Notes: generated by a model not told the origin, from the sequence alone. Numbered from the stretch's first letter, positions 1,621 to 50,917 are shown. The stretch: DNA of 64,000 bases from a virus (IMGVR_UViG_3300029976_000110), one strand, 5' to 3'. A program made the numbers and translations.

Positions 1621-2339
1621 AACTTAATCCAAGATCTAATCCTTTTAAATATAGATGGTTTAGTAACAGCTATTAATCTAGGAGTTTTGTCCTCATCTTT
1701 TGGAAGTTTATATTTATTTAATAACCGTTTTAACTCTTCAGAAGTTTGTGGAACTTCTACTTTACGTTCAGGAGTTTCGTTATATTTACTTTTATAACCT
1801 TCAACAAATTTGTCAAAAGTTAAGTCACAATACTCATCAACCCAATCTCCTAATACATAAAAACGATCAGAAATCATTCGATCATTTTTAAAGCATCCAA
1901 ATAAGATAGGATCTTTATCTCTTCTTTCTTGATCAATTTTACGCTCTTCTCTACCTGTATAATCAGTAAAGATAACGTAAAGCTCATCGAAGATTCCTTT
2001 AGTTTTCTTAACTACTTCAACAATTTCATCAGGAATTTCTCTTGTGTATCGAGATAATTCTATGATTTTAACTACATCCTTAGATACATGATCAATATAA
2101 TCTTCAATCATATCTCTATATACAAATGTAGTAATTCCCAACTCTACTAGTTTTTCCTCTTTTCCTAGTACGTCTGCTAGGAAATTTAATTTCTTAAGAC
2201 TTCTAATCTGACCAGTAGTATTATACTTCTCAGCTAGTTGTGCCATTACAGCATAAGAGTTTTTAATAGACTCTAAAGATGCTGTATTCTTTGCATTTTT
2301 AATATTCTCAAAGTATTGAGAAGGAGTTAATTCTTCCAT
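1617..2339 (-). CDS. hypothetical protein
   Basis: 240-aa ORF in an overlapping operon arrangement. Confidence 0.4.
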   Translation of the reverse strand: MEELTPSQYFENIKNAKNTASLESIKNSYAVMAQLAEKYNTTGQIRSLKKLNFLADVLGKEEKLVELGITTFVYRDMIEDYIDHVSKDVVKIIELSRYTREIPDEIVEVVKKTKGIFDELYVIFTDYTGREERKIDQERRDKDPILFGCFKNDRMISDRFYVLGDWVDEYCDLTFDKFVEGYKSKYNETPERKVEVPQTSEELKRLLNKYKLPKDEDKTPRLIAVTKPSIFKRIRSWIKL

Positions 2340-7077: not shown

Positions 7078-7531
7078 GATTTATAGCATTTTTATACTTC
7101 TCATAGATCCCTCTAATATACTCTTCTTCCATTGGATGATCTCTGAGGCTATCTCTTTTAATACATTCTTCTAATGAAATATCAAAGAATTGCTTGTACT
7201 CTATTTCATATACCAAATTAATAGAAGATTGCCCGATCCATTCGTTAAAGCTCTTTACTTCTTCTTCAATTTCTGATATAGTCTTTGGGTTTAAATTCAT
7301 ATTATCGAGGACTATATCATAACCACTAAGCATAGCTTCATTTAAGAAACTCTTATATATGGAATCAATTAAATCTTCTCTAGAAGAAGTCCGGTATGGT
7401 CCTAACATATTCCGAACCTCATCCCTATTAAATCTAACTCGGGTTTCTTTATTTTCCTCAACCCAAGTCTTGGCCCAAGTAGTCTTACCACTTGCAGGTA
7501 TACCCTGTAGTACTATTACTTTTCTTTTCAT
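7064..7531 (-). CDS. polynucleotide 5'-kinase-like P-loop kinase (T4 Pnk kinase-domain-like)
   Basis: Walker A GIPASGKTT. RFNRDE and VLDNMNLNP follow the spacing of the T4 Pnk kinase domain (NINRD, ISDTNLNPERR). No phosphatase domain is attached. Confidence 0.55.
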   Translation of the reverse strand: MKRKVIVLQGIPASGKTTWAKTWVEENKETRVRFNRDEVRNMLGPYRTSSREDLIDSIYKSFLNEAMLSGYDIVLDNMNLNPKTISEIEEEVKSFNEWIGQSSINLVYEIEYKQFFDISLEECIKRDSLRDHPMEEEYIRGIYEKYKNAINHENI

Positions 7532-8385
7532 TCTAGTAATTCTTTTAATTCCTCACCATAAATGTTTCGCATTTTATCTAAAGCAGTATGAAGTATTTGT
7601 CTAACTCGTTCTCCTCCAATTCCAAATCTTTTAGCTATTTCAACATTTGGAATTGGATACATACCAATGCCAAAAAACATTCTTATAACATCATGCTCCC
7701 TATTAGAGAGACATCCTAATGCCTTTTCAACAGCTATAGGGATATCTTTCTTCGATACTGCTTCATCGGCCGGTTCAGAACCATTTGGTATAATATCAAG
7801 TAAACAACTTGCTTCTTCATCGTTATGTATAGGACTTTCTAGAGAAACAGACCTATTTGAAGCAGCCAGAGACAAGGAGATCTTTTCAGGATTGAGATTA
7901 GTGCTATCTTCAAGTTCAATCATTGAAGGACTTCTTCCATTTTCTTGCTCGAACTTTTCAGTAGCTTTATTAACCTTACCCATACAAACAATTTGATTCA
8001 TAGGAACTCTTACAGTTCTACATTGATCAGAAATTGCTTTAGTAATAGCCTGCCTAATCCACCATACAGCATAGGAAATAAATCGAAAGCCTTTGTTTGC
8101 ATCAAATTTACGGGCTGCTTGAAGCATTCCAAAATTCCCTTCTTGTATTAAGTCAACAAGATCTAGCCCTTTATTCTGATATTGCTTTGCTACAGAAATA
8201 ACAAATCTTAAATTAGCTGTAACTAATTTTTCTTCTGCTTTTTTATCTCCTTCTTTAATTCTCCTAGAAAGCTCTATTTCTTCTTCTGGAGTAATCATAG
8301 AAAGTTTAGATACGTCCTTGAAGTAAATCCCCAAGGACGCATCCTTTCTATCAGTTATAGATTGACTAATCTTGAGATTTTTCAT
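7528..8385 (-). CDS. RNA polymerase sigma-70 family factor
   Basis: Region 2 (LRFVISVAKQY..GLDLVDLIQEGNFGMLQAARKFD, YAVWWIRQAI) and a region-4 HTH (EIAKRFGIGGERVRQI). Confidence 0.8.
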   Translation of the reverse strand: MKNLKISQSITDRKDASLGIYFKDVSKLSMITPEEEIELSRRIKEGDKKAEEKLVTANLRFVISVAKQYQNKGLDLVDLIQEGNFGMLQAARKFDANKGFRFISYAVWWIRQAITKAISDQCRTVRVPMNQIVCMGKVNKATEKFEQENGRSPSMIELEDSTNLNPEKISLSLAASNRSVSLESPIHNDEEASCLLDIIPNGSEPADEAVSKKDIPIAVEKALGCLSNREHDVIRMFFGIGMYPIPNVEIAKRFGIGGERVRQILHTALDKMRNIYGEELKELLE

Positions 8386-9051
8386 TTAAAGAATAGTATC
8401 TAATGTAGCTTGATATTCTACAGTATCAGATGCAAGTTTATCATTTAGATTAGCTAAGGAAGCACATCTATCTACTTCAGAAACAGAGCAACGATAGGCA
8501 GTTGCATAAGTATTAATATGAGTGTAATTAGACATCACATTATCTCTACCAGAAGCAGATCTCAATGTAATACCTAGAGCCTCTACATCATCAAAGGATG
8601 AAATATCAGTTCCCATGTATACGAATGACCAATTATATTTCTCTTCCTGATGCTTAATCATATTTTTAACTCTCTCGAAGCTATATTTCTTAGAATGGTT
8701 TTCAGCTCCATCAGTCATAATTACAATTAAGTTCTTTGAAGGACGTTCTGATTCATTCATATCATTAAGCCATTTACCTATCTCATCTATTGCTATCCCT
8801 ATTCCATCGTTCATAGCTGTAAGTCCTGATGGGCTATAAACTAACTCTGAAACTTCTTGAATAGGTAATCCGATATAGTCTTTCTTAACTTCTGTTGCAA
8901 AACGATATAAAGAAACGACACACTCTCCTTCTTCTACATTCTTTTGTTCTTCTATTAATTTCTTAAATCCTCCTAGAACATCATCGTAAGATCCAAGCAT
9001 AGATCCACTTTCGTCTAGGACAAAACAGATGTGCAATAAATTTGGTTTCAC
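8386..9051 (-). CDS. von Willebrand factor A (vWA) domain protein
   Basis: MIDAS motif ICFVLDESGSM, MTDGAEN. Overlaps start/stop with the RNA ligase gene. Confidence 0.65.
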   Translation of the reverse strand: MKPNLLHICFVLDESGSMLGSYDDVLGGFKKLIEEQKNVEEGECVVSLYRFATEVKKDYIGLPIQEVSELVYSPSGLTAMNDGIGIAIDEIGKWLNDMNESERPSKNLIVIMTDGAENHSKKYSFERVKNMIKHQEEKYNWSFVYMGTDISSFDDVEALGITLRSASGRDNVMSNYTHINTYATAYRCSVSEVDRCASLANLNDKLASDTVEYQATLDTIL

Positions 9052-10418
9052 GCTTCGTCTTCTATATTTATTTCATCATTGTCAAGCTCAGCTTGCTCTT
9101 TATTAAGGAATTTAAAGCATTTTAGCTTGAACGCGCCTACTAGACCATTGTCTATCTTAATAACAAGACCTTCATGTGGCACTTTATTATCACAGTGAGG
9201 CGAGTTACACTCCATATAGAAACGTTTATCATTAGACAAACGCTCTATAAAGTCTTCACTCCAATGATCAGTAATTTCTATATCAGGATATAAATCCCCA
9301 GCTCTACCAACGTAACATTCTTCTACTGGAATTAATCCAACTCTAGCACACCACTGCTGTACTTGATGTGGAGTATACTCAAATGTAACTCCATCCACAT
9401 TAGTATATGTTACTCGATAGATACGTACTGCAAAATGCTTTTCAGGAGTATAAGACTCTCCTTCTTCTGGACGTAAGCATCCATAATCGTAGTTTTTCTG
9501 GATGTAATTACCGTTTGGTAAGAATCCTACTATTTCGTAGTAGATGGTTTGACCTTTAGCTAAACAAGGTCTTACAATCTTATCAGCTTCAGCCCAAACA
9601 TCTACTCCATAAAAACCACTACTTACCCCTTTATTATAATACTTATTCTTTATTACAGTTCTAGAAGCATATAGATAATCATATTTATCAAAATTATATC
9701 CAGTTAGCCATTTAGCTATCTTCTGCTTCCAATTAAGCGGTTGATGACATAAAACATATGCTGAAATACCACTACACCCATGAATTTTATAAGACATTTG
9801 GATAATAGAATCTGGTTGGATAGCCTGTGGTGCTTTCTTTATGATAATTGTATTATAATGAAATCTAAACTGAGTATCTATAACTTTATCAAGCCCTTTC
9901 TTTACTTTCTTAGTTGTTTTGCTCTCAGAGATTCTACTAGTATAGGTATTCTTAGGAATATATTTCTTACTAATCCAGAACTCTTTTGTTCCATTCTGTA
10001 AAGCGTCAAATTCAGTGCCTACTTCAAAAGGCTCTAACTCTTTATTAGTAACAGATACTATATAGTTAGATAGAACAGAAGCTGGAAGAATAAATCCTTC
10101 AGATAATTCTCCTCTTAACTTAATTGCTTTTACTCTACCATTGTCTTCAAACATTCCAGTTTGTTCAGGATTTGCATTTAGCTCCTTATGTTTATAAAGA
10201 TTTGCATAACGTAACAAGTCTGGGTTAATACAAGAGAGAACTGGAAAATAAATATATAACCCTGCTTCAGAGTCTATACCAGTAATAATATTAAATCCAT
10301 CAATAGTACAGCATTTTAACCGAGTTACCTCTGGATCAGAGTGCTTTCTGAAAGAAGTTATATTAACAATTTTAGATAGGTAGTTTTCACTAGCCCTTTT
10401 GCTTTTAATGAGATTCAT
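9048..10418 (-). CDS. RNA ligase, Rnl2-like nucleotidyltransferase (probable true start MNLIKSK at 10418; ORF track extends to 10508)
   Basis: Motif I SYKIHG (KxHG, Rnl2-type). Motif IV EGLVIK. Motif V GAFKLK. An RNA-ligase-like block GELSEGFILPAS lies 5' of motif I in the protein. Confidence 0.65.
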   Translation of the reverse strand: MNLIKSKRASENYLSKIVNITSFRKHSDPEVTRLKCCTIDGFNIITGIDSEAGLYIYFPVLSCINPDLLRYANLYKHKELNANPEQTGMFEDNGRVKAIKLRGELSEGFILPASVLSNYIVSVTNKELEPFEVGTEFDALQNGTKEFWISKKYIPKNTYTSRISESKTTKKVKKGLDKVIDTQFRFHYNTIIIKKAPQAIQPDSIIQMSYKIHGCSGISAYVLCHQPLNWKQKIAKWLTGYNFDKYDYLYASRTVIKNKYYNKGVSSGFYGVDVWAEADKIVRPCLAKGQTIYYEIVGFLPNGNYIQKNYDYGCLRPEEGESYTPEKHFAVRIYRVTYTNVDGVTFEYTPHQVQQWCARVGLIPVEECYVGRAGDLYPDIEITDHWSEDFIERLSNDKRFYMECNSPHCDNKVPHEGLVIKIDNGLVGAFKLKCFKFLNKEQAELDNDEINIEDEA

Positions 10419-10419
10419 A

Positions 10420-10641
10420 TTACTCTCCAGTGTATAGTTGCCATTTATGAGATAAAACAGCATCAATTTTAAATTCTTTGACCTTATAAGCCAACTCGCT
10501 TCGTCCATTTGGAGTACAAATTATATCACCATTTTTATCTTGGTAATAAAATCTTTCTACTCCATTAAGAGTTAGTGAAACTTCATTTCCATTAACCATC
10601 ATCCAGGACAATGCCTGGCTAAAATCATAGTTTGTGCTCAT
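10420..10641 (-). CDS. hypothetical protein
   Basis: 73-aa ORF. Its TAA overlaps the ligase ATG (TAATATG). Confidence 0.35.
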   Translation of the reverse strand: MSTNYDFSQALSWMMVNGNEVSLTLNGVERFYYQDKNGDIICTPNGRSELAYKVKEFKIDAVLSHKWQLYTGE

Positions 10642-10755: not shown

Positions 10756-11824
10756 CATTTATACTTCTTATTTCTAAGAAGATTAGACTATCCCTTCCTC
10801 CACTTTTGGAGGGTCTATTATAGTCGTTGAACATCTCATTTGTTTAAAACTAATAAATTTGTCATATTTCCTATTTAAATAAATTGTTGCATCTTTATAC
10901 ATATAATCAAACAAAGCTAAAGAATCTTTAACACTAAAGTTAAGTACATACACATTTTTATCTAGGTCTTGAAGTTTTACTATTTTTGATTTAGTTGGTA
11001 AATGTTTGGCTAAATCAATTAAAAATTGTTCAGATCCACTACAAAAACCACTTCTTAGTGTATAATAATTAGCTTTACTGCTATTTTTATAAACTCCAAC
11101 AGTTCCATCTCCATCAAAAAACCCTCTTATAAAATGTGGGATTAATGATTCTGGTATATTAGGAAATTGTATAGTTAATGATTTATTAGGGATGCAGCCT
11201 AAACTAATCAAAGAATTAGCTAATTGTACATCATTTATTCTTAAACAATTTATTTCTTTATTATATTTTTTATGAACTTCTTTAGTTAGATTCCCTGTAA
11301 AGTTAATATCTAAAATAAACTGCTTCATTAAATCACCATCGATACAATTCCATCTGACTGCCTTAGAATTATCTGTTTTTTCTTCAACACATCCGTCAGA
11401 ATACATAATTCCAAGCCAATATGCCTTATGTTCTGTGTCAATAATATCAAAGTAGGCACTATTAACAGAGTACTTCTTATAGCAACCCCTTTTCCTAAGA
11501 ACCCCTTTTTCAGACAAGAATTGACGCAATCTATTAGTACTAGTTTTTTCGAGTTTACATATAATGTGAACCCCTTTGTTTTGATTTACATAAAAATCTA
11601 AAATACGATCTTGCTGTTCTTTAGTATATTCTTTTTTCATAGTAATAAAAATTATTAATATTTATCACTACAAATATAATATACTTTATAGTTTTTCACA
11701 AATGATTTTGCTGCGGATTAACCAATTTTAACAATTATTACTAAAAATATAGTATGTTAAACTTTAGGTACTTCCCGCAATTTAAGACGTTTTACAAGTA
11801 TATTACTATACTAGGAGACCCTTG
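10756..11824 (-). mobile_element. group I intron (~1.07 kb) carrying a LAGLIDADG homing endonuclease
   Basis: P1: GAGAU|caagg|GUCUC. P4-like AAAUUGCGGGAA and Q-like AAUCCGCAGC. R GUUCAACGACUAUA. P8 CCUCC-aaaag-GGAGG. S GGGAUAGUC overlaps the HE stop. P9 CUUCUUA-GAAA-UAAGAAG. Ends in AAAUG. Confidence 0.6.
10783..11640 (-). CDS. LAGLIDADG homing endonuclease (double-motif)
   Basis: Two LAGLIDADG motifs: WLGIMYSDGCV and IRGFFDGDGTVGV. The ORF runs through the intron R/P8/S core. Confidence 0.8.
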   Translation of the reverse strand: MKKEYTKEQQDRILDFYVNQNKGVHIICKLEKTSTNRLRQFLSEKGVLRKRGCYKKYSVNSAYFDIIDTEHKAYWLGIMYSDGCVEEKTDNSKAVRWNCIDGDLMKQFILDINFTGNLTKEVHKKYNKEINCLRINDVQLANSLISLGCIPNKSLTIQFPNIPESLIPHFIRGFFDGDGTVGVYKNSSKANYYTLRSGFCSGSEQFLIDLAKHLPTKSKIVKLQDLDKNVYVLNFSVKDSLALFDYMYKDATIYLNRKYDKFISFKQMRCSTTIIDPPKVEEGIV

Positions 11825-16236: not shown

Positions 16237-17516
16237 TTATTCAATAGTACTACTATACGTTCTATGATTGGCTTCAATTTGCCTATACTTATCAAAACCT
16301 TTAATAGGCCTAAGGAATCCGATCACCCTTGTCCATTGAGTCATCTCATGGCTTCCACAATTCGGACAAACAGTAAGGGGTTTCTTATAGATTTTTCCAC
16401 ACTTATCGCATTGTGTGTTAGGGATATTAAAAGTATAATAACAAGCTCCTACATTAAGAGCATGTTTCATTAACTTCTTATATTGTTCCTTACTTAAGTG
16501 ATCTTGTAGGTTTATATGAATTGCCTGCCCTCCTGATGATGCTTTAGCAATTTCCCCACCTTGTAGAACGAACTTATCCAGAACAGAAGTGTCATCATGG
16601 GCATCATAGATATAAGAGTTATAGAGAACTCTATTATCAGGTACTTTATAACCATCAGCTTTATCCCAATTATAATTCTTACTACCTAGACCTTCTGCAG
16701 GTACAATTTCTACATTTAACATAAAATCAGCAGTACTATTTGCAATGTTAAAATCTTGAATCGTTCTAAGAATAAAGGTTACAAAGTTCTTATAGTCCTC
16801 ATTGTTATTCACATTCAGGCCAACGAACATGGCTGCTTCATTAATACCGTTTATGCCAGTAGTACTAAAGAGCTTGTGAAAGTCAATAAATCCAGCATTT
16901 ACGCAGGAAAACATCTTCTTATCCGCCCATTCGTACAGAATAGTTTTATAAGCAATTTGATCTTTCTTAACTCTTTCTAGGATGTCTATTAAATAGTTAT
17001 GGAATTTATCCATGTTCCTATAAAAGTCATTATAGTCCATACCAGAAGTATATCCTCCTGTTCTAGCCCAATCTTGAATGATCCTATTTATATTAAGAGT
17101 AATAACATTACAACTTCCAGTACTAACTCCAGTAAGGCCAATAGTAGATGAGAATGTATTCTCACTTATTTCATTTCTCAGCCTACAACAACTAGCAACG
17201 GCATCAGAATTGTCAGATGTATATGCAAAGAAACTATGTCCTTCAGACCACATTTCTGCTGCAAAGTCGGCATATTCTTGATCTAGATATTCACCATCTT
17301 TACTAAGAAGACAAAGCGATTCAACAGGATAAGTAAGTAAAGTTTTGGTTCTTTCATTATTGAACCATCTCATGAATCGCTTCTGTATGAAACTAACTGC
17401 ATCCCAATTTAAAGTACTTCCATCAGGAAATACAAAAGCATCAAATAAGCTATGCCAATAAAACCTATCAAAATAATTAAAATTTACAACATTTATATTT
17501 AATGTAGTTCGTAAAG
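16237..17516 (-). CDS. nrdD: anaerobic ribonucleotide reductase NrdD, exon 2 (C-terminal part with Zn ribbon and glycyl-radical motif)
   Basis: C-terminus CDKCG..CPNCG then TRVIGFLRP (glycyl-radical RVxG motif). In-frame sequence upstream of the annotated Met continues the NrdD body (..NFNYFDRFYWHSLFD..). Confidence 0.75.
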
Positions 17517-17744
17517 CTACTCCTTTATGTTTCCATAAAGATTAGACTATATCATTACTCTCAATGAGAGACCTCCCACTTCCATCACCATTAACTTGTG
17601 ATGTACTCTACTCACTTCCATCTTGTTTAGATGTGTTTTCGATAGTCGTTGAACGTTCTTCTAATGAAGCTTCGTTGCTGATTATCCTCGACTCTACGTT
17701 AGGAGTTTCCAGCAATTCAAGAGGTTTTACGTCCGCATATTTTT
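17517..17744 (-). ncRNA. group I intron (ORF-less, ~228 nt) in nrdD
   Basis: P1: GUCCGU|aaaaauau|GCGGAC with U.G at the splice site. 5' block UGAAUUGCUGGAAACUCC is identical to the DNA polymerase intron 1. R GUUCAACGACUAUCG. S UAAUGAUAUAGUC. P9 CUUUAUG-GAAA-CAUAAAG. 3' splice site placed at GAGUAG|CUUUAC by analogy; the exact 3' boundary is uncertain by ~30 nt. Confidence 0.55.
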
Positions 17745-18642
17745 ACGGACTTTGATAACTTCTGTTCCCAGCAGGTTGATTTATAGAATAAACCACATTC
17801 TGGAATGCTTGGTCTATCTCATCACCTATTGTACGTTGATTACAACAAGCTGAGGTGGTTACTACAGTATCTGGATGAAGGTAAAAATCTTTTCCCCATT
17901 CTAACTCACAAAAATGAGTAAAGAAGTTAAAGAACTCTCCCACACCAACAGCTCCTTTGCATTGAGAGGAACATAAGAAGATTAGATTGATAAGTTGCCC
18001 GCAGAAACTCTTCAAGTTATGAGGAGGCTTAGTTCCAAGTCCGTCCATTACACTAGTTCCATGTAAAAGAAGTGGATAAAGAGTGATAGCTTGACAATAG
18101 AATTTGGGAACAGAAGTAGAACTTTCATCATGTGTGTAGATAATATGATGTTCTAGGTCTTTAACATACTGTTCCGCAACTTCTGGAAACATTTTCTTAA
18201 GCTTCTTTGTCATTCTACGCCTTTGTATTCTCCTATTTCTCTTTTTATAAACTTCACTCTCTAAATTAGCAACATTCTTTAATGATACATTAGCATTTCC
18301 ATCTGTTTCGGATGATGTGGCTGCGTTATCAGAACTCTCAGAGTATTCATCCATATATTTTAACCTATCTTCATCTTCTCTTTCAAGTTGATGGGTATAG
18401 CGATAAAGAATATAAGATTTAGCTACTTCATTATAGTCCCAATCCATTAAAAGCTCTTCTATCTGATCTTGAATATCTTCAACACTAATTTCATCCCAAA
18501 TTTGGACTTCATCTACAATTTTTGTCAATACATCTTCCCCAATATGAGTGTTTGTAGACAAAAAAGCCTTTTGAAGCGCACTCTCTATTCTAGTACGATC
18601 AAAAGGAACCAGATTTCCATTTCTTTTTCTTACTTTACACAT
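17745..18642 (-). CDS. nrdD: anaerobic ribonucleotide reductase NrdD, exon 1 (ATP-cone and N-terminal catalytic region)
   Basis: MCKVRKRNGNLVPFDRTRIESALQKAF is an ATP-cone signature. The unspliced ORF ends QSP*. Confidence 0.75.
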
Positions 18643-42243: not shown

Positions 42244-43233
42244 TTATTTTACTACAATAGTAGCTACTCTACCACTAGTTATACTAGCAGCACCTATGCC
42301 TGTAGAGTTAATTACTTTTACTCCACGATCAGTTAAGAAGTCAGTAACTACCTTAGCACGCTTCTCAGATAGAGTTTGGTTATACTCAGCACTTCCTTCT
42401 ATAGAAGCTTCACCAATTACATTAACTTCTGTTCCTTTTGCTATCTTTGACAGAGTTGTCATAGAAGTTGCGGTTAACTCATCGGAGTTCTGTGCAAAGT
42501 ATACTACATACTCACCACTTCCAACTTCTCTAATTACTTCTTTAGTTGTAACAACTTCCTTAACGGTAGGCTTCTTTGCCAATTCAGCCTTTAGAGAGTT
42601 AATTTCACTATTCAAAGCGGCAATATCATAAGTTTTAAACGAGTGAGTTCCATTAGATGTAGGGAAATGATATACATAACCTACTTCTAAAGCAAGCTGT
42701 GCATTATGCTTATTAAACTGTAGCTTTCCACTTCTAGAAAGATTCCAGTAAACGGCTGGGCTAACTACTATTGAATGTACATCACCAATATTAAATGAAG
42801 CAACTACACCAGTCTTAGCAGTTAAATCATTCTCATGTCCAGTCCAACTATGCAACCATCCAATACCAGTTTCTGTAGACACTTCAAATTTTCTCGGATG
42901 TCCTAGATAACCACATAGCAAGTTACTAAAGTTTATTACTCCATTAACTCCAGTGTTAATAGAGCGAACTACAGTAGAAGCATTACCATAGTGATTATCG
43001 CCAAACGAGGCAAGACCCTCGACATTTACACCTATAACAGGGGTAAAATCTTTCTGAACTTTCAATCCTACAACACCATTAAGAGGAAATGTAGAACTAA
43101 AATCAAGGGGAGTTGTTGCTCCACCTACTACACCAATAGAAATGTTATCAAGAATTTTAGACTCTTGATAAGCTGTTTGTGCTGAAGCACTTAGAGTAAA
43201 CAGCAAACTCATTAAGAAAATTAATTTTTTCAT
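42244..43233 (-). CDS. OmpA-family outer-membrane protein (N-terminal beta-barrel-like domain + C-terminal OmpA domain)
   Basis: Signal peptide MKKLIFLMSLLFTLSASAQ. C-terminal OmpA-like block YFAQNSDEL..SEKRAKVVTDFL..GV. Confidence 0.55.
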   Translation of the reverse strand: MKKLIFLMSLLFTLSASAQTAYQESKILDNISIGVVGGATTPLDFSSTFPLNGVVGLKVQKDFTPVIGVNVEGLASFGDNHYGNASTVVRSINTGVNGVINFSNLLCGYLGHPRKFEVSTETGIGWLHSWTGHENDLTAKTGVVASFNIGDVHSIVVSPAVYWNLSRSGKLQFNKHNAQLALEVGYVYHFPTSNGTHSFKTYDIAALNSEINSLKAELAKKPTVKEVVTTKEVIREVGSGEYVVYFAQNSDELTATSMTTLSKIAKGTEVNVIGEASIEGSAEYNQTLSEKRAKVVTDFLTDRGVKVINSTGIGAASITSGRVATIVVK

Positions 43234-44024: not shown

Positions 44025-45866
44025 TTAACCCTTATTTTCTTCAGTCTTTCCAACAATTGCATTAAGAGTTTTCTTAAATGGTATAGATTTAAGAAGTTCA
44101 AATGCAGGATTAAGATTTTCAGCCATGCTAGCCATAAATTGACCTGCAGTATTCTCATTACCATATACAGTAACTTCTCCAAGGTGAATATGTTCAAATA
44201 CCTGAGCTTGTGCTTCAGCAATACCCTTAAGCTGATCAACAGTCTTAAACTGAACCACCATTTCTGGGGTCATACCTGTTTCAATCATCTTCTGGACAGC
44301 TAGTGCAGGAGCCATTTCAATAGCTTGAACCTTATCGGCCTCAGCCATCAAAGAAGCTCTCTTGCCCTCTGCTTCAGCAAGAAGCTTCTTCTTGTTACCT
44401 TCTGCTTCAGCTTCAGCTTTAGTTTGTATTGCAGTAGCTTCTGCAAAAGCCTTCTGACGAATAGCTTCTGCTTCTGCTTCTGCTTCTACAACTTTCTTCT
44501 GTTTCTCGGCTTCTGCTTGAATAACAATCTCTTCTTTCTTCTTCTGAGCAGGAACAATTACTTCTGCATTAAGCTTAGCTTCAGCAGCTTTAGCAGTTTT
44601 ATTAGCAATCTCTATTTCGGCTTCCGCCTTAGAAACACCTGCTACTCGCTGTGCTTCTGCTTCAGCTTTAGCAGCCTCTCCTTTAGCAGTCGATACTTCA
44701 ATAGTCGCTCTTTGTTCTGCTACGCCAGCTTTCTTATTAGCTTCAGCAGATCTTTGTCTCTTTTGAGATTCAAATTCTGCTACTTTGGCTTCCTGCTCGT
44801 TGATAGCTTCCTGTGTCTTTGCTTCTTGCTCTTGCTCTGCCTTAGCAATACGAACCTGCTTCTGAGCTTCTGCTTCAGCTTGTGCCGCATTAGCTTCTGC
44901 TTCAGACTTGGCAATAGATGCAACTGCTTCTGCTTTACGAGCTGCTTTAGCTGATTCTGCTTCTGCCTTAGACTTGGCCATATTAGCTTCCATCTCTGCA
45001 GTTTGAGCAGCCTTACCAGACTCTCTAAGCTTTTCTGCTTCCGCAAGTTTAATTTCCTTATCCTTGTCAATCTCAGCAACATTTATAGCTTGTTCTTGAC
45101 GAGCTTGTGCTACTTGAGTTTCTCTTTCTTTGTTAGCTTGAGCAACGGCAATATCCTTTTCCTTAGTAGTTTCAGCTATCTGAATTTGTCCTTTCTTCTC
45201 CTCCTCTGCAATATCTGCTTGTGCTTGTGCTTGTGCTTTAGTTGCAGCTTTCTTACCAAGATTCTCAATATAATTTGCATCATCCTTGATTTCAGCATTA
45301 TTAATATTGATAATAGTAAAACCTACTTTATTAAGTTCTGTTTCAATACTTTCCTTAGCTTTACCTAAGAAAGCAACACGATCAGCATTAATTTCTTCAA
45401 TGGACATAGTAGATACAACACTTCTCATTTCACCAATAAGAATATCAGTGATTTGCTGAGAAATTTCGTTTGTAGAACAAGTTAAGAATCTACTAGCAGC
45501 ATTTTGCATAAGAGTATCTGTTGTTCCAATACCAGTTGTTAATGTAACAGGAATTGTAACATTAATAAACTGAGAAGTAGGGCCTTTTACAGTAGCTTGA
45601 ATCTGAATAGGTTTAAGAGACATTTTCCTCCAATCTTGGATTACTGGAAATACAAACGTACCTCCACCATGAATTATTTTAGAAGGAAGAATGACAGTTT
45701 CATTCCTACTCATCTTTGGATTGAAGACGGTTTTCTTTCCTGCTTTACCAAAGACAACTAAGATTTCATCACTCGCACATCTACGATAGCGAGACATCAG
45801 ACCAATAATGGTCAAAATTACAAGAATTGTTATAATCCCAGTAACAATTAAAGTTGAATCAATCAT
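44025..45866 (-). CDS. flotillin-family SPFH/band-7 protein with long Ala/Glu-rich coiled-coil repeats
   Basis: N-terminal TM. SPFH-type region (ILVVFGKAGKKTVF..PKMSRNETVILP..LKPIQ..). Flotillin-like EA repeats. C-terminal flotillin tail. Confidence 0.7.
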   Translation of the reverse strand: MIDSTLIVTGIITILVILTIIGLMSRYRRCASDEILVVFGKAGKKTVFNPKMSRNETVILPSKIIHGGGTFVFPVIQDWRKMSLKPIQIQATVKGPTSQFINVTIPVTLTTGIGTTDTLMQNAASRFLTCSTNEISQQITDILIGEMRSVVSTMSIEEINADRVAFLGKAKESIETELNKVGFTIININNAEIKDDANYIENLGKKAATKAQAQAQADIAEEEKKGQIQIAETTKEKDIAVAQANKERETQVAQARQEQAINVAEIDKDKEIKLAEAEKLRESGKAAQTAEMEANMAKSKAEAESAKAARKAEAVASIAKSEAEANAAQAEAEAQKQVRIAKAEQEQEAKTQEAINEQEAKVAEFESQKRQRSAEANKKAGVAEQRATIEVSTAKGEAAKAEAEAQRVAGVSKAEAEIEIANKTAKAAEAKLNAEVIVPAQKKKEEIVIQAEAEKQKKVVEAEAEAEAIRQKAFAEATAIQTKAEAEAEGNKKKLLAEAEGKRASLMAEADKVQAIEMAPALAVQKMIETGMTPEMVVQFKTVDQLKGIAEAQAQVFEHIHLGEVTVYGNENTAGQFMASMAENLNPAFELLKSIPFKKTLNAIVGKTEENKG

Positions 45867-46364
45867 TTAAGAAATATTATAAATACCTGAATTAAAAGCA
45901 ATTATTTGACAGATTTCTCCTTGTTTTTTAGGAGAATCTGATATACATACAATTTCAGTATAAGGCTCATCCATTAGATAGCAGGAACTTCTTCCGTCTG
46001 ATAACGGGGCATATACTACAACTTTCTTACCTATAAGAGCAGACCCCGACTTTGTAGTAGGTTCATAATTGAACTTCATACAAAGTTTATATAGGAAGAA
46101 TAGAGCAACCACAAAAATGATTCCTACTATAACTGCTCCTATAATAGTTGCAATAGTTACTTGTCCATTAAGCATTAGCCATCCAGAGAACCCCATAACG
46201 AAGTGAGTTAGTCCTTTAAAAGACAATAAATCACTTGCACCAAAGTCAATATTTCCATCACAGTCTACATCCAAATCCATATCTCCAATCCCAAGATTAG
46301 ACAATATGAATTGAATAATAAAAATACCGTAGGAAATTATACCTAAAATATAATACCACTCCAT
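45867..46364 (-). CDS. NfeD-like membrane protein (flotillin partner, YuaF/YqiJ-like)
   Basis: Multiple TM segments plus a C-terminal soluble OB-like domain. Sits immediately upstream and translationally coupled, in the same order as yuaF-floT. Confidence 0.55.
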   Translation of the reverse strand: MEWYYILGIISYGIFIIQFILSNLGIGDMDLDVDCDGNIDFGASDLLSFKGLTHFVMGFSGWLMLNGQVTIATIIGAVIVGIIFVVALFFLYKLCMKFNYEPTTKSGSALIGKKVVVYAPLSDGRSSCYLMDEPYTEIVCISDSPKKQGEICQIIAFNSGIYNIS

Positions 46365-46964: not shown

Positions 46965-48197
46965 TTAGTTAATTATAAAGTTCTTTGAAAAAAGTATTTC
47001 CTCGAATCTAAGATCATTACCAATATAATCCCTATTGTTTGTCTGATTTCTTTTAAGAATACATAAACGATTAATTCCATCAAGTACTCTGTCAGCTACT
47101 TCTTTAGGATAAATCTCAGTTACAATACCTACTAAATTGTTATTAGGAAGTTTCTTATAAGGAGTTTCCTCTGCGAACTTCAGTATAGCATTAAAGATAT
47201 AAATCCATAGTATAATTTTATTTAAATTATATGTAGGACGGAGTAATCTAAACTCTATCGTTTTGTTTACAGTATAACAGATAGCATTAATGAAGTTACA
47301 CCAGAAATAACGGGTATGGACTTGCCATTTTCTATTCCTTCCTATGTCATTTGGGTGTGGCTGAGTTAGATCTCCAAAAAACTTCTTTCCTACCAAGTAT
47401 TCATACATTTGGTTAAAGTCCCTAAAATTTTTTAATGGATTACAGTAATCTTTACCATTATTTTTGTACCTGGCAGAATTAAAAGTATACTGTGGAACAA
47501 GATCAACAATGTCTTTTTCTAGTAACTTACACAAATAATATAAGTCATATAACTTCTGAGGATCAAGTGGGTACCCACCAAAATGTATATGCAATGAACA
47601 TTCTTTGTTAAAGACAGTATATTCATTTAGTGTAGTTACTTCTTGTTCTAAAAGAGCTAATCCTTCACTTCCTCTTAAAACAACAGAAGAATATTCTATT
47701 CCATCAATAGATCCATCCCTTAAAGGTATTAATCCATCTCTGAAGCATAATTCTTCTGGCACATAGCCCATAGAAGTTTCAAATTCAAGTCCGAAACTAT
47801 ATTTTAGGTATTTACTTAAAGTAAACTCCTTCTTTGATACGATTTGTCTTCCTTCAAAAAGACGGAAACTCTCTATAGCCTCATATCTTCGTTCAAAGTT
47901 ATAAGGAAACTTTCCTTGGCCAAAAGTACATACTTCGTTGATAACAATGTCTTCAGGAACTCCAGTTTTATCAAACCAAAATCCACCTTTGTTACTATAA
48001 CACAGGTTTGCATTTTTTATGTAAACATTTTTAAATCGGAATGGGAACGCCTCTCCTGTATAAACTCCAATTGTTTTAATGTCCTTCGTATCTTGAAAAT
48101 ATCCATAAACCGTTAAATCTGGAGTATGAGATACAATCGCTCTAATACTTTTACTAAAGTCTACAGCTTTTCGAGATACTTCATCTATTACTTGCAT
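46965..48197 (-). CDS. GCS2/glutamine-synthetase-fold amidoligase-like protein
   Basis: FGLEFETS..GSIDG.EYSS and CSLHIHFGG (Glu/His ligand blocks of Amidoligase_2-type enzymes). Confidence 0.45.
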   Translation of the reverse strand: MQVIDEVSRKAVDFSKSIRAIVSHTPDLTVYGYFQDTKDIKTIGVYTGEAFPFRFKNVYIKNANLCYSNKGGFWFDKTGVPEDIVINEVCTFGQGKFPYNFERRYEAIESFRLFEGRQIVSKKEFTLSKYLKYSFGLEFETSMGYVPEELCFRDGLIPLRDGSIDGIEYSSVVLRGSEGLALLEQEVTTLNEYTVFNKECSLHIHFGGYPLDPQKLYDLYYLCKLLEKDIVDLVPQYTFNSARYKNNGKDYCNPLKNFRDFNQMYEYLVGKKFFGDLTQPHPNDIGRNRKWQVHTRYFWCNFINAICYTVNKTIEFRLLRPTYNLNKIILWIYIFNAILKFAEETPYKKLPNNNLVGIVTEIYPKEVADRVLDGINRLCILKRNQTNNRDYIGNDLRFEEILFSKNFIIN

Positions 48198-49516
48198 TCT
48201 TTCTCAACAGATTTAAAGTTAATTTCTACTTTCTTAGGAATATACTCGTCAAGATCTCTAACACCTGCATTAAAAGTATTTTTTATTACTTTTCCACCCA
48301 GATATTCTGTCCTACTACTAATTGAGAGAGGTTGAAAAGAACCAGTAAATAAAATAGCCTTAGTTGGAGATATAGCTCTATACATTAGGCCATCTTCTCC
48401 TTTAAAGACTTCATCTACGCTAAGATAACGAATTAGAGTTTGATTTTTCTTTCTAAATTTTATACCATCCAAACCACTTTTCCTTCTAAGAATACAGAGA
48501 AATCTAAAGCATTTATCGTTCTTTAGCATTACCCCATCAAAGAACCAAAAGGGTTTAGTTGGAGACATTTTTCTAGAGGAACTAATTTCAACTCTTCCCC
48601 ATTTACTTAACATTATCTTTCCGTTTGCTCTTTTTCCTTTAAACAAATAAATATTTTGGCTAAGGTCTTGAGTAATCCAGTTACTATACATTGAATCTTC
48701 CAATTCGAATATACTTCTATGAGATCCAAAATCTCTAAGTTCTGGATATACTATTTCCATCTCTCTAGATTGAGTCATTTTATTTCTTGGACAATCCTTA
48801 ACTTTGACAAGTTCTTTTCCATCAAATTCCCATAAGACATTAGCTGCTAAATTCCAAACATTTAAGTCTTTTCGTAAAGCAAGAAGATGTGTTCCAATGG
48901 AAGAAAATATAAGCTCTCTCTTAACTGAATCTATACAGTAACAAAGAGGTCTTTCTTCCTCTTCTTCCTTAGAATAAGTATGTTTCTTAGAAGAACCTTT
49001 AAACAGATATGTATGTGGACCATAATTTCTATAGTCAATGGTAACAAAGGCAGAACCTCCATTATATTCACTTAATACATCATATCCACTATAATAGAAT
49101 ATTCGTGCCATAACTTGAGAATCAGTCATACCACTAATATCTATTTCTGGAATATACTTAGCTGCAAGCTCCTTATAATTGTATATAGTTCCATTATGAA
49201 GTACTACAAATTCTACTTCTTCCTTATCATTAGTTAAAATAACAGGTTGAGCTGTTTCCTTTGTAATTTTTCCAATAGATGCCTTTCGACAATGTAACAA
49301 AGCCACTTTTGCAGTTTTTGTATTGAATAGAAGCTCACTTTCTGGAAAGTACGCTCGGAAGTATTTTTCTTTATCTACTCCATACTCGTATTTTCCATCA
49401 ATAAACACTCCACAAGAGTCACCACCTCTACTATCATTAGCTATTCCTAAAACACAAAATGCGCTATAGTCAAATGCTCTAGGAATTTTATTAACAATTC
49501 CTGCTAATCCACACAT
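48188..49516 (-). CDS. class-II (Ntn) glutamine amidotransferase domain protein
   Basis: N-terminal MCGLAGIV (Cys2 nucleophile right after the Met). GATase-2-like first ~230 aa. Confidence 0.55.
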   Translation of the reverse strand: MCGLAGIVNKIPRAFDYSAFCVLGIANDSRGGDSCGVFIDGKYEYGVDKEKYFRAYFPESELLFNTKTAKVALLHCRKASIGKITKETAQPVILTNDKEEVEFVVLHNGTIYNYKELAAKYIPEIDISGMTDSQVMARIFYYSGYDVLSEYNGGSAFVTIDYRNYGPHTYLFKGSSKKHTYSKEEEEERPLCYCIDSVKRELIFSSIGTHLLALRKDLNVWNLAANVLWEFDGKELVKVKDCPRNKMTQSREMEIVYPELRDFGSHRSIFELEDSMYSNWITQDLSQNIYLFKGKRANGKIMLSKWGRVEISSSRKMSPTKPFWFFDGVMLKNDKCFRFLCILRRKSGLDGIKFRKKNQTLIRYLSVDEVFKGEDGLMYRAISPTKAILFTGSFQPLSISSRTEYLGGKVIKNTFNAGVRDLDEYIPKKVEINFKSVEKECK

Positions 49517-50301
49517 ATCGTGTATGCTTTTATGATTTTAGACGCTAACTCTACATCACTATTATTTATAGCTGTTTGTATGTCTGAAGAATTAGCTAGA
49601 GGATATCCGCTATTATGAGCGGTTATTGCCCTACTAACCTGTCTCCAAACAAATCGAATTAAGTCTATATCTTTCATCAATGCGGAAGATAATACTCGAT
49701 ATTCACATCCGTATGGTTTAAGCCTAAAACATCCAGCCTTTCCATATAAGGATCTTCTCTTTTTATCAGAGTCTTTCAATATTGAAGGTATACCTAAATA
49801 CATATCTAAGTATTTGATTAACATTAGACTAGTATCAATATTGTTGTAATCATATCCTAGATGGATATGCATTCCTGCTGAGCGGATATTAGTTCTATTT
49901 CCTTTTGGCTTAGGGTTAGCTTCTTCAGTATACGCATTAAAGTCTATATCGCAGCCAAATTCCTTAGCTTGAGGAGACTTTAATTGGCTCGTAGGAACTA
50001 AAGCTGAAGCTGTACACATAATTCCAAGTTTGGGATTCTTACTTTTTACAAACTTGTCAATATATTGTTTCATATATTCAATGCTATTGATAAATGAAAC
50101 TTCGCTTGTACAAGGAGGAATATTAAATTCGGATAATATGTTATCAGTTTCTATCCCAAAACCATTTGGCATATCATCCGCTTTATAAGGGTTTCCTTTT
50201 TCTCCAGGAATAAGACCAATAGCAGAAACTACTTTCTTCGTTTCTTCATTTATTATAAAAAGCTCTGGATCAGCTCCTATAGTAACATTAGTTATTTTCA
50301 T
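49504..50301 (-). CDS. amidoligase-like protein (second paralog)
   Basis: IGADPELFII, GFGIETD, SAGMHIHLGYD. Confidence 0.45.
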   Translation of the reverse strand: MKITNVTIGADPELFIINEETKKVVSAIGLIPGEKGNPYKADDMPNGFGIETDNILSEFNIPPCTSEVSFINSIEYMKQYIDKFVKSKNPKLGIMCTASALVPTSQLKSPQAKEFGCDIDFNAYTEEANPKPKGNRTNIRSAGMHIHLGYDYNNIDTSLMLIKYLDMYLGIPSILKDSDKKRRSLYGKAGCFRLKPYGCEYRVLSSALMKDIDLIRFVWRQVSRAITAHNSGYPLANSSDIQTAINNSDVELASKIIKAYTICVD

Positions 50302-50917
50302 TGACTAACTTTGTTATAAGGTTACTAATCATTTCTGCGACAGGAGAATTTGGAATCATTTCTGGATGCCCCTGTACTGCTAAACACTTAGGTAAACCTT
50401 GCTTATGATATAATACTATTTCTGGTTCACCATTGTCCAGTATTTCCTCAGGGTCAATCTTATCCCCTTCATAGTAATCGCTCCCAACTCCGAAAGCAGT
50501 AAAGAGTAAGTCATAATCTTCTTTAGGAAGGTTATAAGGATACTGCATTTGATGATGAGTAGAAGTTATTTCATATATAACCTTTCCGTTAGTTATGCCA
50601 TGAGTATAACCAGTAGCATGACAGCCACAATTTTGGACTAGTAAGCCCCCATTGAGCACTGACATCAGCTGAGACCCCCGGCATATACCTAAACAAAGCT
50701 GATTAAGCTTTACTTGATCAAAGATTTTCTTTTCTTCTTTGTCCCTTTTCAAGTTACTATGGGTTGTTCTATGCTTCGTACATCCATATAAGGATGGACT
50801 TACATCTTCACCTCCAGTAAACAAAACAACGTCTGCTTCTTCTAGATTACTAACCAGAGTAGCATCCTTTATAAAATTAGCGTAGTGTGTAGCTCCGCCT
50901 ACAACGTATATCTTCAT
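50288..50917 (-). CDS. class-I glutamine amidotransferase-like / C26 gamma-glutamyl hydrolase-like protein
   Basis: LGICRGSQ (GxCxG catalytic-Cys block), later H/E. ~209 aa. Confidence 0.5.
   Translation of the reverse strand: MKIYVVGGATHYANFIKDATLVSNLEEADVVLFTGGEDVSPSLYGCTKHRTTHSNLKRDKEEKKIFDQVKLNQLCLGICRGSQLMSVLNGGLLVQNCGCHATGYTHGITNGKVIYEITSTHHQMQYPYNLPKEDYDLLFTAFGVGSDYYEGDKIDPEEILDNGEPEIVLYHKQGLPKCLAVQGHPEMIPNSPVAEMISNLITKLVNENN

Follow-up and report, generated by a model that had tools for sequence, protein, structure and literature searches.

The window, i.e., the whole stretch of 64,000 nucleotides analyzed here, corresponds to the replication region in the genome of a large crAss-like phage. 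It encodes PolA, DnaB, a primase, NrdD, ligases, and a dUTPase, and the nearest relatives of its PolA are those of crAss-like phages (40-49% identity). About 20 kb from the primase gene, beside the SPFH/NfeD and glucosaminidase genes, four overlapping minus-strand open reading frames occupy positions 46965-50917, exactly where an earlier sequence-only reading had placed them. The features of this region are the following:

42244-43233: OmpA-like protein, an envelope-related neighbour
44025-46364: SPFH/Band_7 protein and NfeD-like partner, envelope-related neighbours
46965-48197, minus strand: predicted Amidoligase_2-family ligase, 410 aa (PF12224, phrog_2443)
48188-49516, minus strand: class-II (Ntn) glutamine amidotransferase (GAT-II) with C-terminal domain, 442 aa (GATase_6/GATase_7)
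49504-50301, minus strand: predicted phiEco32-type COOH-NH2 ligase type 2, 265 aa (PF14395, phrog_3815)
50288-50917, minus strand: C26/class-I amidotransferase (GATase1), 209 aa (Pfam and PHROGs), the first of the four enzymes to be transcribed
50928-51650, minus strand: w240 family protein, 240 aa, conserved fifth cassette member
51681-52640, minus strand: w319 family protein, 319 aa, with a Met-rich low-complexity C-terminus, syntenic in the large-genome clade
52683-52716, minus strand: terminator-like hairpin with a stem of 15 bp and a T-run behind it (consensus match only)
52798-53283: glucosaminidase, an envelope-related neighbour

Successive enzyme genes overlap by 14 nt (209/265 aa), 13 nt (265/442 aa), and 10 nt (442/410 aa), which means that the GAT-II gene overlaps both ligase genes. 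The start codons are backed by initial methionines that are invariant, or nearly so, in the homologue alignments. As tight gene packing is usual in phages, the overlaps alone are weak evidence for a protein complex. The hairpin, which separates the 319-aa gene from that of the glucosaminidase, would probably form the upstream limit of the cassette transcription unit. The sequence-only reading had placed the GATase1 gene last; it is transcribed first. All motifs that were quoted in that reading are present: the 410-aa protein has FGLEFE and HIHFGG, the 265-aa protein has GADPELF, GIETD, and HIHLGYD, the 442-aa protein starts with MCGLAG, and the 209-aa protein has GICRGSQ. The four domain assignments of the reading are borne out by Pfam scores that all lie above the curated cut-offs and by agreement with PHROGs, and the predicted catalytic residues are intact in all four enzymes.

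The 209-aa protein matches Peptidase_C26 with 54.7 bits (cut-off 20.5; E 1.5e-14), GATase with 24.8 bits (E 1.9e-5), and phrog_7218 (glutamine amidotransferase; E 1.1e-30). Its homologue alignment contains the invariant stretches G77-x-C79-R80-G81-x-Q83, H121-H122-Q123, and H184-P185-E186, from which a C79-H184-E186 triad on a nucleophile-elbow fold, as in the Peptidase C26/class-I amidotransferase type, is predicted. Its nearest relatives of solved structure are weak, with 3fij (Lin1909) at E 4e-4, followed by 7d4r and related entries at E ~0.2, deposited as "probable glutamine amidotransferase". It shows no equivalog-level similarity to bona fide gamma-glutamyl hydrolases (PuuD, gamma-glutamyl-CDP-amidate hydrolase), the best NCBIfam match being gamma-glutamyl-CDP-amidate hydrolase at 22.4 bits versus a cut-off of 250. 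The 442-aa protein matches GATase_6 (52.4 bits) and GATase_7 (37.7 bits) above the curated cut-offs and consists of an Ntn amidotransferase domain (residues ~1-250), a disordered acidic/aromatic linker (256-276), and a conserved C-terminal domain (~278-442). Conserved among its homologues are C2, which is nearly invariant, R77, N108-G109, and D132; the Ntn fold, the Cys1 nucleophile, and the Arg, Asn-Gly, and Asp glutamine-binding residues of class-II enzymes are all found. A fused synthase domain of known type (PRTase, SIS, PP-loop, or GltS) is absent from this protein, and no recognizable synthase domain was seen in phage GAT-IIs; hence, a separate partner would be needed if nitrogen were transferred.

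The 265-aa protein is a predicted ATP-dependent carboxylate-amine ligase; it matches COOH-NH2_lig PF14395 with 47.1 bits (cut-off 25; E 2.4e-12) and, over its full length, phrog_3815 (COOH.NH2 ligase; E 3.8e-68). Its invariant residues in the homologue alignment are D11, E13, D53, N54, E58, H145, H147, E200, and R202. The 410-aa protein is assigned to Amidoligase_2 PF12224 (27.3 bits versus a cut-off of 22; E 4.1e-6) and to phrog_2443 (amidoligase; E 3.1e-14). Its catalytic region (residues ~130-340) is located behind ~130 N-terminal residues, with E138, E140, D161, H203, H205, E315, and R317 invariant in 46 homologues. The two ligases had been described as paralogs, a term that does not fit them: they belong to different Pfam families, their profile-profile comparison in hhalign reveals no significant similarity (probability 2.4%), and they have in common only the superfamily signature E-x-E/H-x-H/E-x-R, so that, as judged from their profiles, they are not close paralogues. 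For either family, no relative of solved structure was detectable by sequence and no biochemically or structurally characterized enzyme was found; the chemistry assumed below is therefore extrapolated from the superfamily.

The previously unannotated w240 gene is located 10 nt upstream of the GATase1 gene. The survey comprised 80 related IMG/VR loci, which form 42 clusters at 90% identity; in 73 of them, a member of the w240 family is next to the C26 gene. The family is often duplicated, with two copies upstream of the cassette core in cr108_1, and has a compact fold as well as numerous polar, Cys, and His positions that are invariant. The w240 family is a conserved member of the cassette. In loci devoid of an ATP-grasp gene, the w319 gene precedes the w240 gene; it has 22 homologues there (42-65% identity), and its identity to the equivalent gene of locus L004 is 64.5%. 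According to hhalign, the w319 protein is related neither to the w240 family (probability 0.3%) nor to ATP-grasp (12%), and no match of its family was found in Pfam, PHROGs, or NCBIfam. The w319 gene is a candidate member of the cassette.

The exact five-gene order is kept in 61/80 loci, which takes the arrangement far beyond chance; GAT-II is followed by Amidoligase_2 in 77/80 and C26 by the COOH-NH2 ligase in 72/80. The two-ligase arrangement, previously regarded as unusual, is canonical for the cassette, being found in 77/80 of the IMG/VR loci as well as in several deposited phages: Pseudomonas phage tf (LUZ24-like), Salmonella phage 7-11 (phiEco32-like), Alcaligenes phage QDWS535, Citrobacter phage CVT22, Cellulophaga phage phi14:2, and cr108_1. 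The same cassette occurs across unrelated phage lineages. By tblastn, the COOH-NH2 ligase was detected in 316 of 50,697 phage records (best, cr108_1, 49.6%), and it is also present in hundreds of metagenomic clusters from crAss-like phages, as well as in 371 stretches of IMG/VR. Outside phage records, a search of 185,579 species genomes gave no more than 24 loci, almost all of which are located on contigs of metagenome-assembled genomes and are probably phage sequence.

In other lineages the cassette additionally contains a RimK/YheCD-like ATP-grasp ligase and a gamma-glutamyl cyclotransferase (AIG2/GGCT). In the 64-kb window, tblastn revealed neither, and six-frame profile searches gave no GGCT and a best E of 0.18 for ATP-grasp. 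Among the 80 loci, the ATP-grasp gene is absent from 34 and GGCT is present in only 12; the reduced form devoid of both is found in 33, most of them on 90-350 kb contigs. This reduced form and the w240 family as a cassette member go beyond the sequence-only reading. The pathway of the window may be truncated, or it may be completed by genes outside the 64 kb.

A cassette of this kind in phiEco32/LUZ24-type phages was reportedly described by Iyer, Abhiman, Burroughs, and Aravind in 2009 in Mol Biosyst. The prediction of the phage amidoligase cassette from genomes is that of Iyer et al. 2009, as cited in PMC10580990; the connection to a comparative-genomics prediction had been drawn correctly for the present locus. 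The same paper reports Amidoligase_2 and GATase genes in OM43 phages and mentions no other cassette member there. The literature search turned up no experimental characterization or enzyme assay, in line with the earlier statement that the function is unexplored experimentally. The predicted role in peptide-tag or metabolite chemistry, as given in the sequence-only reading, is not contradicted by any result of the analysis. Like the window, the phiEco32/LUZ24-type cassette comprises a COOH-NH2 ligase type 2, an Amidoligase_2, and a class-II amidotransferase with a long C-terminal part, which are adjacent, co-directional, and located in an early/replication region. It differs by containing the RimK/YheCD-like ATP-grasp ligase and the gamma-glutamyl cyclotransferase, by the replacement of the C26-type GATase1 with an unrelated protein of ~190 aa (phrog_4877), and by its order, which is ligase, phrog_4877, ligase, GAT-II, versus C26, ligase, GAT-II, ligase in the window. 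The core order of the window recurs in cr108_1 (~100-kb Crassvirales), whose proteins are 32-50% identical, and ligase, GAT-II, and amidoligase are ordered likewise in phi14:2 (Steigviridae). Both phages possess the ATP-grasp gene, while phi14:2 also has GGCT and is devoid of C26; in both, the cassette is located between primase and UDG, which is not the case in the window. The arrangement is the form that the standard phage amidoligase cassette takes in crAss-like phages and is not new in kind.

Precedents for a ligase acting together with a hydrolase are PuuA/PuuD (putrescine), EgtA/EgtC (ergothioneine), and BtrJ/BtrG (butirosin), which work with a gamma-glutamyl "handle", and MurT/GatD. None of the handle pairs is orthologous to the cassette, as their superfamily-level matches remain far under curated thresholds; PuuA and EgtA belong to other families than the phage ligases, and the phage GAT-II is extended by a C-terminal domain of ~165 residues. 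In MurT/GatD, as in the cassette, the gene of a thiol glutaminase lies beside that of an ATP-dependent ligase, the pairings of the cassette being kept in 72-77 of 80 loci. The fold of MurT is that of a Mur ligase, and GatD belongs to the CobQ-type amidotransferases; Pfam gave no Mur_ligase or GATase_3 match among the four cassette proteins, and the resemblance is one of logic only. To our knowledge, no amidotransferase pairs an Amidoligase_2- or PF14395-type ligase with a class-II or C26 partner.

On balance, we lean slightly towards a short cytoplasmic, ATP-driven, amide-forming pathway, in which the four enzymes would act by glutamine or gamma-glutamyl chemistry as two hydrolase-ligase pairs. 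The co-directional, presumably translationally coupled block would be expressed together with the replication and early genes of the phage, in the order w240, C26 amidohydrolase (Cys-His-Glu), COOH-NH2 ligase, class-II glutaminase (N-terminal Cys, novel C-terminal domain), and Amidoligase_2. C26 would be paired with the COOH-NH2 ligase and GAT-II with Amidoligase_2. By analogy with known superfamily activities, each ligase would use ATP to activate a carboxylate as acyl-phosphate, which would then be joined to an amine. The thiol hydrolase might either release ammonia from glutamine for its partner ligase, as in a split amidotransferase of the MurT/GatD kind, with Amidoligase_2 providing the synthase subunit missing from the phage GAT-II, or it might later strip a gamma-glutamyl "handle", as in PuuA/PuuD and EgtA/EgtC; since both modes require the same glutamine-binding residues, they are inseparable by sequence. 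The pathway would yield a short tag or a small compound, amidated or gamma-glutamylated, on an acceptor. In favour of this reading are the family assignments, the conserved catalytic residues, the gene overlaps, the kept pairings, the recurrence of the cassette in unrelated lineages, and the genes reported in OM43 phages. In a directed-evolution study of a Pseudomonas phage, moreover, missense changes arose in both the amidoligase and the adjacent GAT-II; they were found in two evolved phages of one lineage, from rounds 15 and 30 (PMC11450229). The presence of ATP-grasp and GGCT genes in the cassettes of relatives fits glutamyl/gamma-glutamyl chemistry. On the other hand, the C26-type motifs (C-R-G, HHQ) are closer to those of gamma-glutamyl hydrolases than to those of ammonia-donating subunits, and, among stand-alone class-II GATase-like proteins, those studied so far (EgtC, DUG3) act as hydrolases, both of which count against the pathway. 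A more far-reaching version, which we consider unlikely, is that GAT-II plus Amidoligase_2, and in parallel C26 plus the COOH-NH2 ligase, would represent a new glutamine-dependent amidotransferase architecture, in which an Ntn glutaminase with a novel docking domain would hand ammonia to a separate ligase. Together with w240, the cassette would then modify a macromolecule or metabolite by a new kind of amide linkage, and crAss-like phages, like many others, would need this modification in replication, for example, against host defence.

Other functions have to be weighed against this amide-forming pathway. Protein tagging appears quite unlikely. In such a Pup/PafA-like or RimK-like scheme, a phage or host protein would receive glutamate or a short peptide from the ligases, at a lysine or at its C-terminus, and the thiol hydrolases would trim or remove this tag. 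PafA/Dop belong to the same ligase superfamily, relatives of the cassette have a RimK-like ATP-grasp, and the often duplicated w240 family, non-enzymatic-looking beside the enzymes, could provide the substrate or adaptor. Tagging is also the original proposal of Iyer et al. 2009 as cited in PMC10580990, with kindred reasoning in PMC4431377. Yet the invariant polar, Cys, and His residues and the compact fold of w240 suggest an enzyme rather than a tag acceptor; its C-terminus is not glutamate-rich, no candidate target is identifiable, and neither a Pup-like small protein nor a Pup_ligase Pfam match, as expected for pupylation, was found. We regard as very unlikely a modification of the envelope, in which peptidoglycan precursors (e.g., stem-peptide carboxylates) or another polymer would be amidated or extended, blocking superinfection or timing lysis. 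The Pfam description of PF14395 reportedly names cell-wall modification against superinfection, and the block of the window is surrounded by glucosaminidase, OmpA-like, and SPFH/Band_7 plus NfeD-like genes. These neighbours, however, are kept only in the closest relatives; the cassettes of ~100-kb crAss-like and LUZ24-like phages are located near primase/UDG or primase/helicase genes and not near lysis or envelope genes, and Pfam revealed neither a Mur-ligase domain nor a membrane-associated family. Cell-wall modification against superinfection is likewise the function for which PMC10580990 cites Iyer et al. 2009, and a real precedent is MurT/GatD, a ligase and glutaminase that act on lipid II (PMC3267633).

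It seems highly improbable that the cassette diverts the nitrogen, glutamine, or glutathione-type metabolism of the host to phage replication by synthesis or breakdown of gamma-glutamyl peptides, with no dedicated product. Glutathione and gamma-glutamyl metabolism has counterparts for each part (GCS-fold ligase, ATP-grasp synthetase, GGCT, DUG3-/C26-type hydrolases), and NAD-salvage genes adjoin the cassette in two unrelated phages (NAD_synthase plus NUDIX in L013, PncB plus PrsA in Lbo-JY46). Against this, the ligase is essentially confined to phages and, thus, is not a copy of a host pathway gene, and no cassette protein scores at equivalog level with any known metabolic enzyme. Phage ZRK32 contains the same genes, which an eLife paper reads as auxiliary metabolism, but this reading rests on no enzyme assays (PMC10945688). 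Least probable would be the attachment of an amino-acid-derived group to phage DNA, a nucleotide precursor, or tRNA for restriction evasion. It would accord with the location of the cassette in the replication module of many lineages, and amino-acid and polyamine adducts of phage thymidine are known; however, no base-hypermodification family was among the top 25 matches of each Pfam/PHROG survey of the 64-kb window, Pfam gave no nucleic-acid-binding domain in the four enzymes, and neither LUZ24-like nor phiEco32-like phages are known to us to have modified bases.

As it stands, the finding correctly identifies a system that is already known but uncharacterized. Among the functionally uncharacterized enzyme blocks of tailed phages, the cassette ranks with the more widespread ones. 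Its being standard in crAss-like phages, which are more abundant in the human gut than any other phage group, as well as the reduced six-gene form devoid of ATP-grasp and the constant presence of the w240 family, offers a cleaner, minimal version to test. Should the hydrolase-ligase pairs turn out to be split amidotransferases, they would represent a new enzyme architecture, and a product that modifies a host or phage macromolecule would imply a new mechanism of phage-host interaction.

The minus-strand block at 46965-50917 encodes the four-gene cluster of amidoligases and GATases that had been proposed from sequence alone; the ORFs and all quoted motifs were found. A Pfam check of the four families assigned each above the curated cut-offs, and PHROGs matches were concordant ('glutamine amidotransferase', E 1.1e-30; 'COOH.NH2 ligase', E 3.8e-68; 'amidoligase enzyme', E 3.1e-14). 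Successive ORFs overlap by 14, 13, and 10 nt in transcription order. A fifth ORF, w240, lies 10 nt upstream of the C26 gene.

Genes of the cassette in the window
50928-51650, minus strand: w240, 240 aa
50917-50288, minus strand: C26-type GATase, 209 aa; Pfam Peptidase_C26/GATase
50301-49504, minus strand: COOH-NH2 ligase, 265 aa; Pfam COOH-NH2_lig (PF14395)
49516-48188, minus strand: class-II amidotransferase (GAT-II), 442 aa; Pfam GATase_6/GATase_7 (class II)
48197-46965, minus strand: Amidoligase_2 ligase, 410 aa; Pfam PF12224

A phage amidoligase system was reportedly predicted by Iyer et al. (2009), and the cassette of the window is that system. The conclusions of these authors are followed here as relayed in PMC10580990. 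The core features of the system found in the window are both ligase families, the class-II GATase, and the phage operon, whereas its ATP-grasp and GGCT members are absent from the window copy; neither gene was detected in the 64 kb by tblastn or by our own profiles on the six-frame translation. What is added to the known system is modest: the w240 family is recognised, and a lineage-specific reduced form is described. The observation holds, bears on a genuinely open question in phages of very high abundance, and would not surprise a specialist. The view that the function is experimentally unexplored holds in the full-text literature searched, which gave genome-annotation mentions only and no biochemical or genetic study of the cassette.

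The two ligases had been taken for paralogues in an unusual arrangement. Close paralogy is ruled out by hhalign (probability 2.4%), which aligned only the H-x-H motif, and the arrangement proved to be the canonical one. A profile scan of IMG/VR yielded 371 ligase relatives, the best 80 of which, forming 42 clusters at 90% identity, were analysed with purpose-built HMMs. The adjacency and order counts in these loci make the two-ligase layout the rule and not an oddity.

Direct adjacency and gene order in the best 80 of 371 IMG/VR loci
GAT-II followed by Amidoligase_2: 77/80
COOH-NH2 ligase followed by GAT-II: 74/80
w240 family followed by C26: 73/80
C26 followed by COOH-NH2 ligase: 72/80
Five-gene order identical to that of the window: 61/80

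Relatives of the region exist at the protein level only; no DNA-level match was obtained among 50,697 phage records. By tblastn, the COOH-NH2 ligase is found in 316 of these 50,697 deposited genomes, including 121 Pseudomonas, 94 Escherichia, and 22 Vibrio phages. Among species-level genomes of bacteria and archaea, 24 ligase matches only were obtained, nearly all on contigs of metagenome-assembled genomes that probably represent phage sequence and thus offer no useful cellular context; the family seems all but restricted to phages.

Layouts in other phages
Pseudomonas phage tf (LUZ24-like): two ~300-aa unknowns, COOH-NH2 ligase, ~190-aa phrog_4877, Amidoligase_2, GAT-II, small ORF, RimK-like ATP-grasp, GGCT; same layout in UFV-P2
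Salmonella phage 7-11 (phiEco32-like): layout equivalent to tf
Alcaligenes phage QDWS535, Citrobacter phage CVT22, Leptolyngbya phage Lbo-JY46: variants of the tf-type gene set
Cellulophaga phage phi14:2: primase, GGCT, ATP-grasp, ligase, GAT-II, amidoligase, UDG
cr108_1: primase, small ORF, ATP-grasp, two unknowns, C26, ligase, GAT-II, amidoligase, UDG

The ~190-aa phrog_4877 protein located between the ligases of LUZ24-like and phiEco32-like phages was considered as a degenerate GATase1 and rejected, as it has neither a Cys/His motif nor a Pfam match. GGCT occurs without C26 in tf and phi14:2, and C26 without GGCT in the window and cr108_1; mutual replacement of the two across lineages was dismissed because GGCT-bearing loci among the best 80 of 371 from IMG/VR also carry C26.

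The reduced form, which lacks ATP-grasp and GGCT, accounts for 33 of the best 80 of 371 IMG/VR loci, mostly on contigs of 90-350 kb. In these loci, a gene of the w319 type (window 51681-52640, minus strand) stands before the w240 gene, as it always does in the large-genome clade, at the site occupied by the ATP-grasp ligase in other crAss-like phages. The C-terminus of the 319-aa product is Met-rich and of low complexity (MMLMLMS, PLMLMNQ, LMLMSMMS, and similar runs). The protein shares 42-65% identity with its homologues and could be assigned to no family or fold; neither a cryptic ATP-grasp (hhalign probability 12%) nor a w240 paralogue (0.3%) is supported. Since a strong terminator-like hairpin lies just upstream, at 52716-52683, the transcription unit may begin at 52640. 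Downstream of the cassette, at gaps of 0-4 nt, come a 197-aa ORF and the genes of an NfeD-like membrane protein and of a 613-aa SPFH/Band_7 protein. All three were excluded from the cassette because their synteny is limited to the closest relatives; the SPFH/NfeD-like pair is syntenic in loci L004 and L019-L021 and not in other lineages. The pair spans 44025-46364 (minus strand); the SPFH protein has a long Ala/Glu/Lys-rich coiled-coil region, while the NfeD-like reading refers to a 165-aa hydrophobic protein, without Pfam match, encoded before it.

The w240 proteins form an unannotated family that is a constant component of the crAss-like phage cassette. By profile search, the family has 459 representatives of ~240-300 aa; besides the window, sites were located at L001 5463-7364, L013 2380-4054, and L016 1892-3578. 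Distant members are found directly upstream of C26 on the independent contigs L013, L016, and L017, and directly after the ATP-grasp gene on L012. In cr108_1, the two 'hypothetical proteins' encoded upstream of C26 are family members (HMM E 1e-16 and 1e-18; Foldseek E 1.2e-10 and 3.5e-8, respectively), and in the best 80 of 371 IMG/VR loci w240 often occurs as two tandem paralogues 3' of the ATP-grasp gene. The AF2 model of the w240 protein is good, and its fold is without a PDB neighbour. Weak structural matches link w240 to ~290-aa proteins, one from Aeromonas phage 4_4572 (E 0.018) and one from Cronobacter phage GAP52 (E 0.16, probability 0.69). They hint that the pairs of ~300-aa unknowns found upstream of the ligase in phages of proteobacteria may be distantly related to w240.

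Alignments of metagenomic homologues (688 matches for GAT-II, 739 for Amidoligase_2) revealed conserved candidate active sites. In GAT-II, R77, N108-G109, and D132 do not vary and C2 hardly does; set against PurF and GlmS, these residues make up the complete class-II complement for binding and hydrolysing glutamine. Invariant positions are E138, E140, H203, H205, E315, and R317 in Amidoligase_2, D11, E13, E58, H145, H147, E200, and R202 in the COOH-NH2 ligase over seven phage lineages, and the nucleophile elbow G-x-C79-R-G-x-Q, the HHQ motif, and H184-P-E186 in C26. PDB sequence searches with both ligase profiles for a solved structure returned noise only. The C-terminal domain of GAT-II does not resemble other cassette proteins, and in the GAT-II proteins at L007 7541-9136, L008 8152-10101, and L011 7089-8267 Pfam sees the glutaminase domain only.

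The two ligases of the cassette belong to the carboxylate-amine ligase superfamily, as do glutamine synthetase and gamma-glutamylcysteine ligase, which convert a carboxylate to an acyl-phosphate that then reacts with ammonia or an amine; by analogy, each ligase of the cassette would do likewise. The gamma-amide of glutamine or gamma-glutamyl-X is the bond cut by class-II and C26/class-I thiol enzymes. Hydrolases and ligases alternate in the cassette (hydrolase-ligase-hydrolase-ligase), and the conservation of this order points to two functional hydrolase-ligase pairs. This pairing is supported by the near-invariant adjacency of GAT-II and Amidoligase_2, by the fact that a known synthase domain was found in no phage GAT-II, by the Amidoligase_2 and GATase genes reported for OM43 phages (PMC10580990), and by missense changes in both the GAT-II and Amidoligase_2 genes of two evolved phages from one directed-evolution lineage (PMC11450229). 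The sequence fits either of two modes. In one, the hydrolase would pass glutamine-derived ammonia to its own ligase, as a split amidotransferase comparable to MurT/GatD; in the other, the ligase would add a gamma-glutamyl group, to be taken off afterwards by the hydrolase, comparable to PuuA/PuuD and EgtA/EgtC; for cassettes with GGCT, BtrJ/BtrG would be a parallel for the latter mode. Glutamyl or gamma-glutamyl chemistry is reinforced by the RimK/YheCD-like ATP-grasp and GGCT of the fuller cassettes. On balance, paired hydrolase-ligase, amide-forming glutamine/gamma-glutamyl chemistry is somewhat favoured as the general mechanism.

The conceivable targets follow in descending order of probability. 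A protein tag is unlikely. A cell-envelope precursor is less likely still: envelope-related neighbours help a little in the window and do not do so elsewhere. They comprise a glucosaminidase-domain peptidoglycan hydrolase (52798-53283, minus strand, E 1.7e-17) and, on the other side of the block, an OmpA-like-domain protein (42244-43233, minus strand, E 4e-10), the sole local hint of an envelope link. Host nitrogen or glutathione-type metabolism is improbable as a target, and nucleic-acid modification highly so, as the matches listed in the window surveys include no family typical of base hypermodification. NUDIX and NAD_synthase adjoin the cassette in metagenomic contig L013 (374-1625), as do PncB and PRPP synthetase in Leptolyngbya phage Lbo-JY46 (L009 1-3963); these NAD-related neighbours in two unrelated phages may be coincidence or a pointer to a nucleotide/cofactor substrate.

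The window is a phage replication and nucleotide-metabolism region with nearly all genes on one strand, encoding PolA, a DnaB-like helicase, primase, split NrdD, DNA and RNA ligases, PNK, dUTPase, and Sak4; PADLOC gave no defence-system match. The nearest PolA relatives belong to the crAss-like phages IAS virus, crAss001, and cr112_1 (40-49% identity). A JGI metagenome contig encodes proteins identical to those of the window, and relatives with 45-75% identity lie on contigs of 145-180 kb; this size, 33% GC, and PolA fit a putative assignment to the 'Zeta' crAss-like group (PMC12386605).

Also encoded are a sigma-70-family factor (7528-8385, minus strand) with recognisable regions 1.2, 2, 3, and 4 (Pfam E 3e-20 to 2e-10; phrog_351 E 1.7e-64) and a 603-aa Ro60/TROVE-like protein (54382-56193, minus strand; DUF2828/DUF7788/VWA; phrog_850 'RNA-binding protein'), which together with the RNA ligase and polynucleotide kinase elsewhere in the window (further site at 9048-10508, minus strand) has the appearance of an RNA-repair set. 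The anaerobic ribonucleotide reductase NrdD is split over 16237-18642 (minus strand) into an ATP-cone and N-terminal part (17743-18642) and a C-terminal part (16237-17373), with ~370 nt between them, which suggests an intron or intervening element. The window also has a LAGLIDADG-type ORF (10783-11640, minus strand) and a further 240-aa ORF (1617-2339, minus strand), which lacks a Pfam match and corresponds to phrog_10081 'transposase' (E 4.6e-73).
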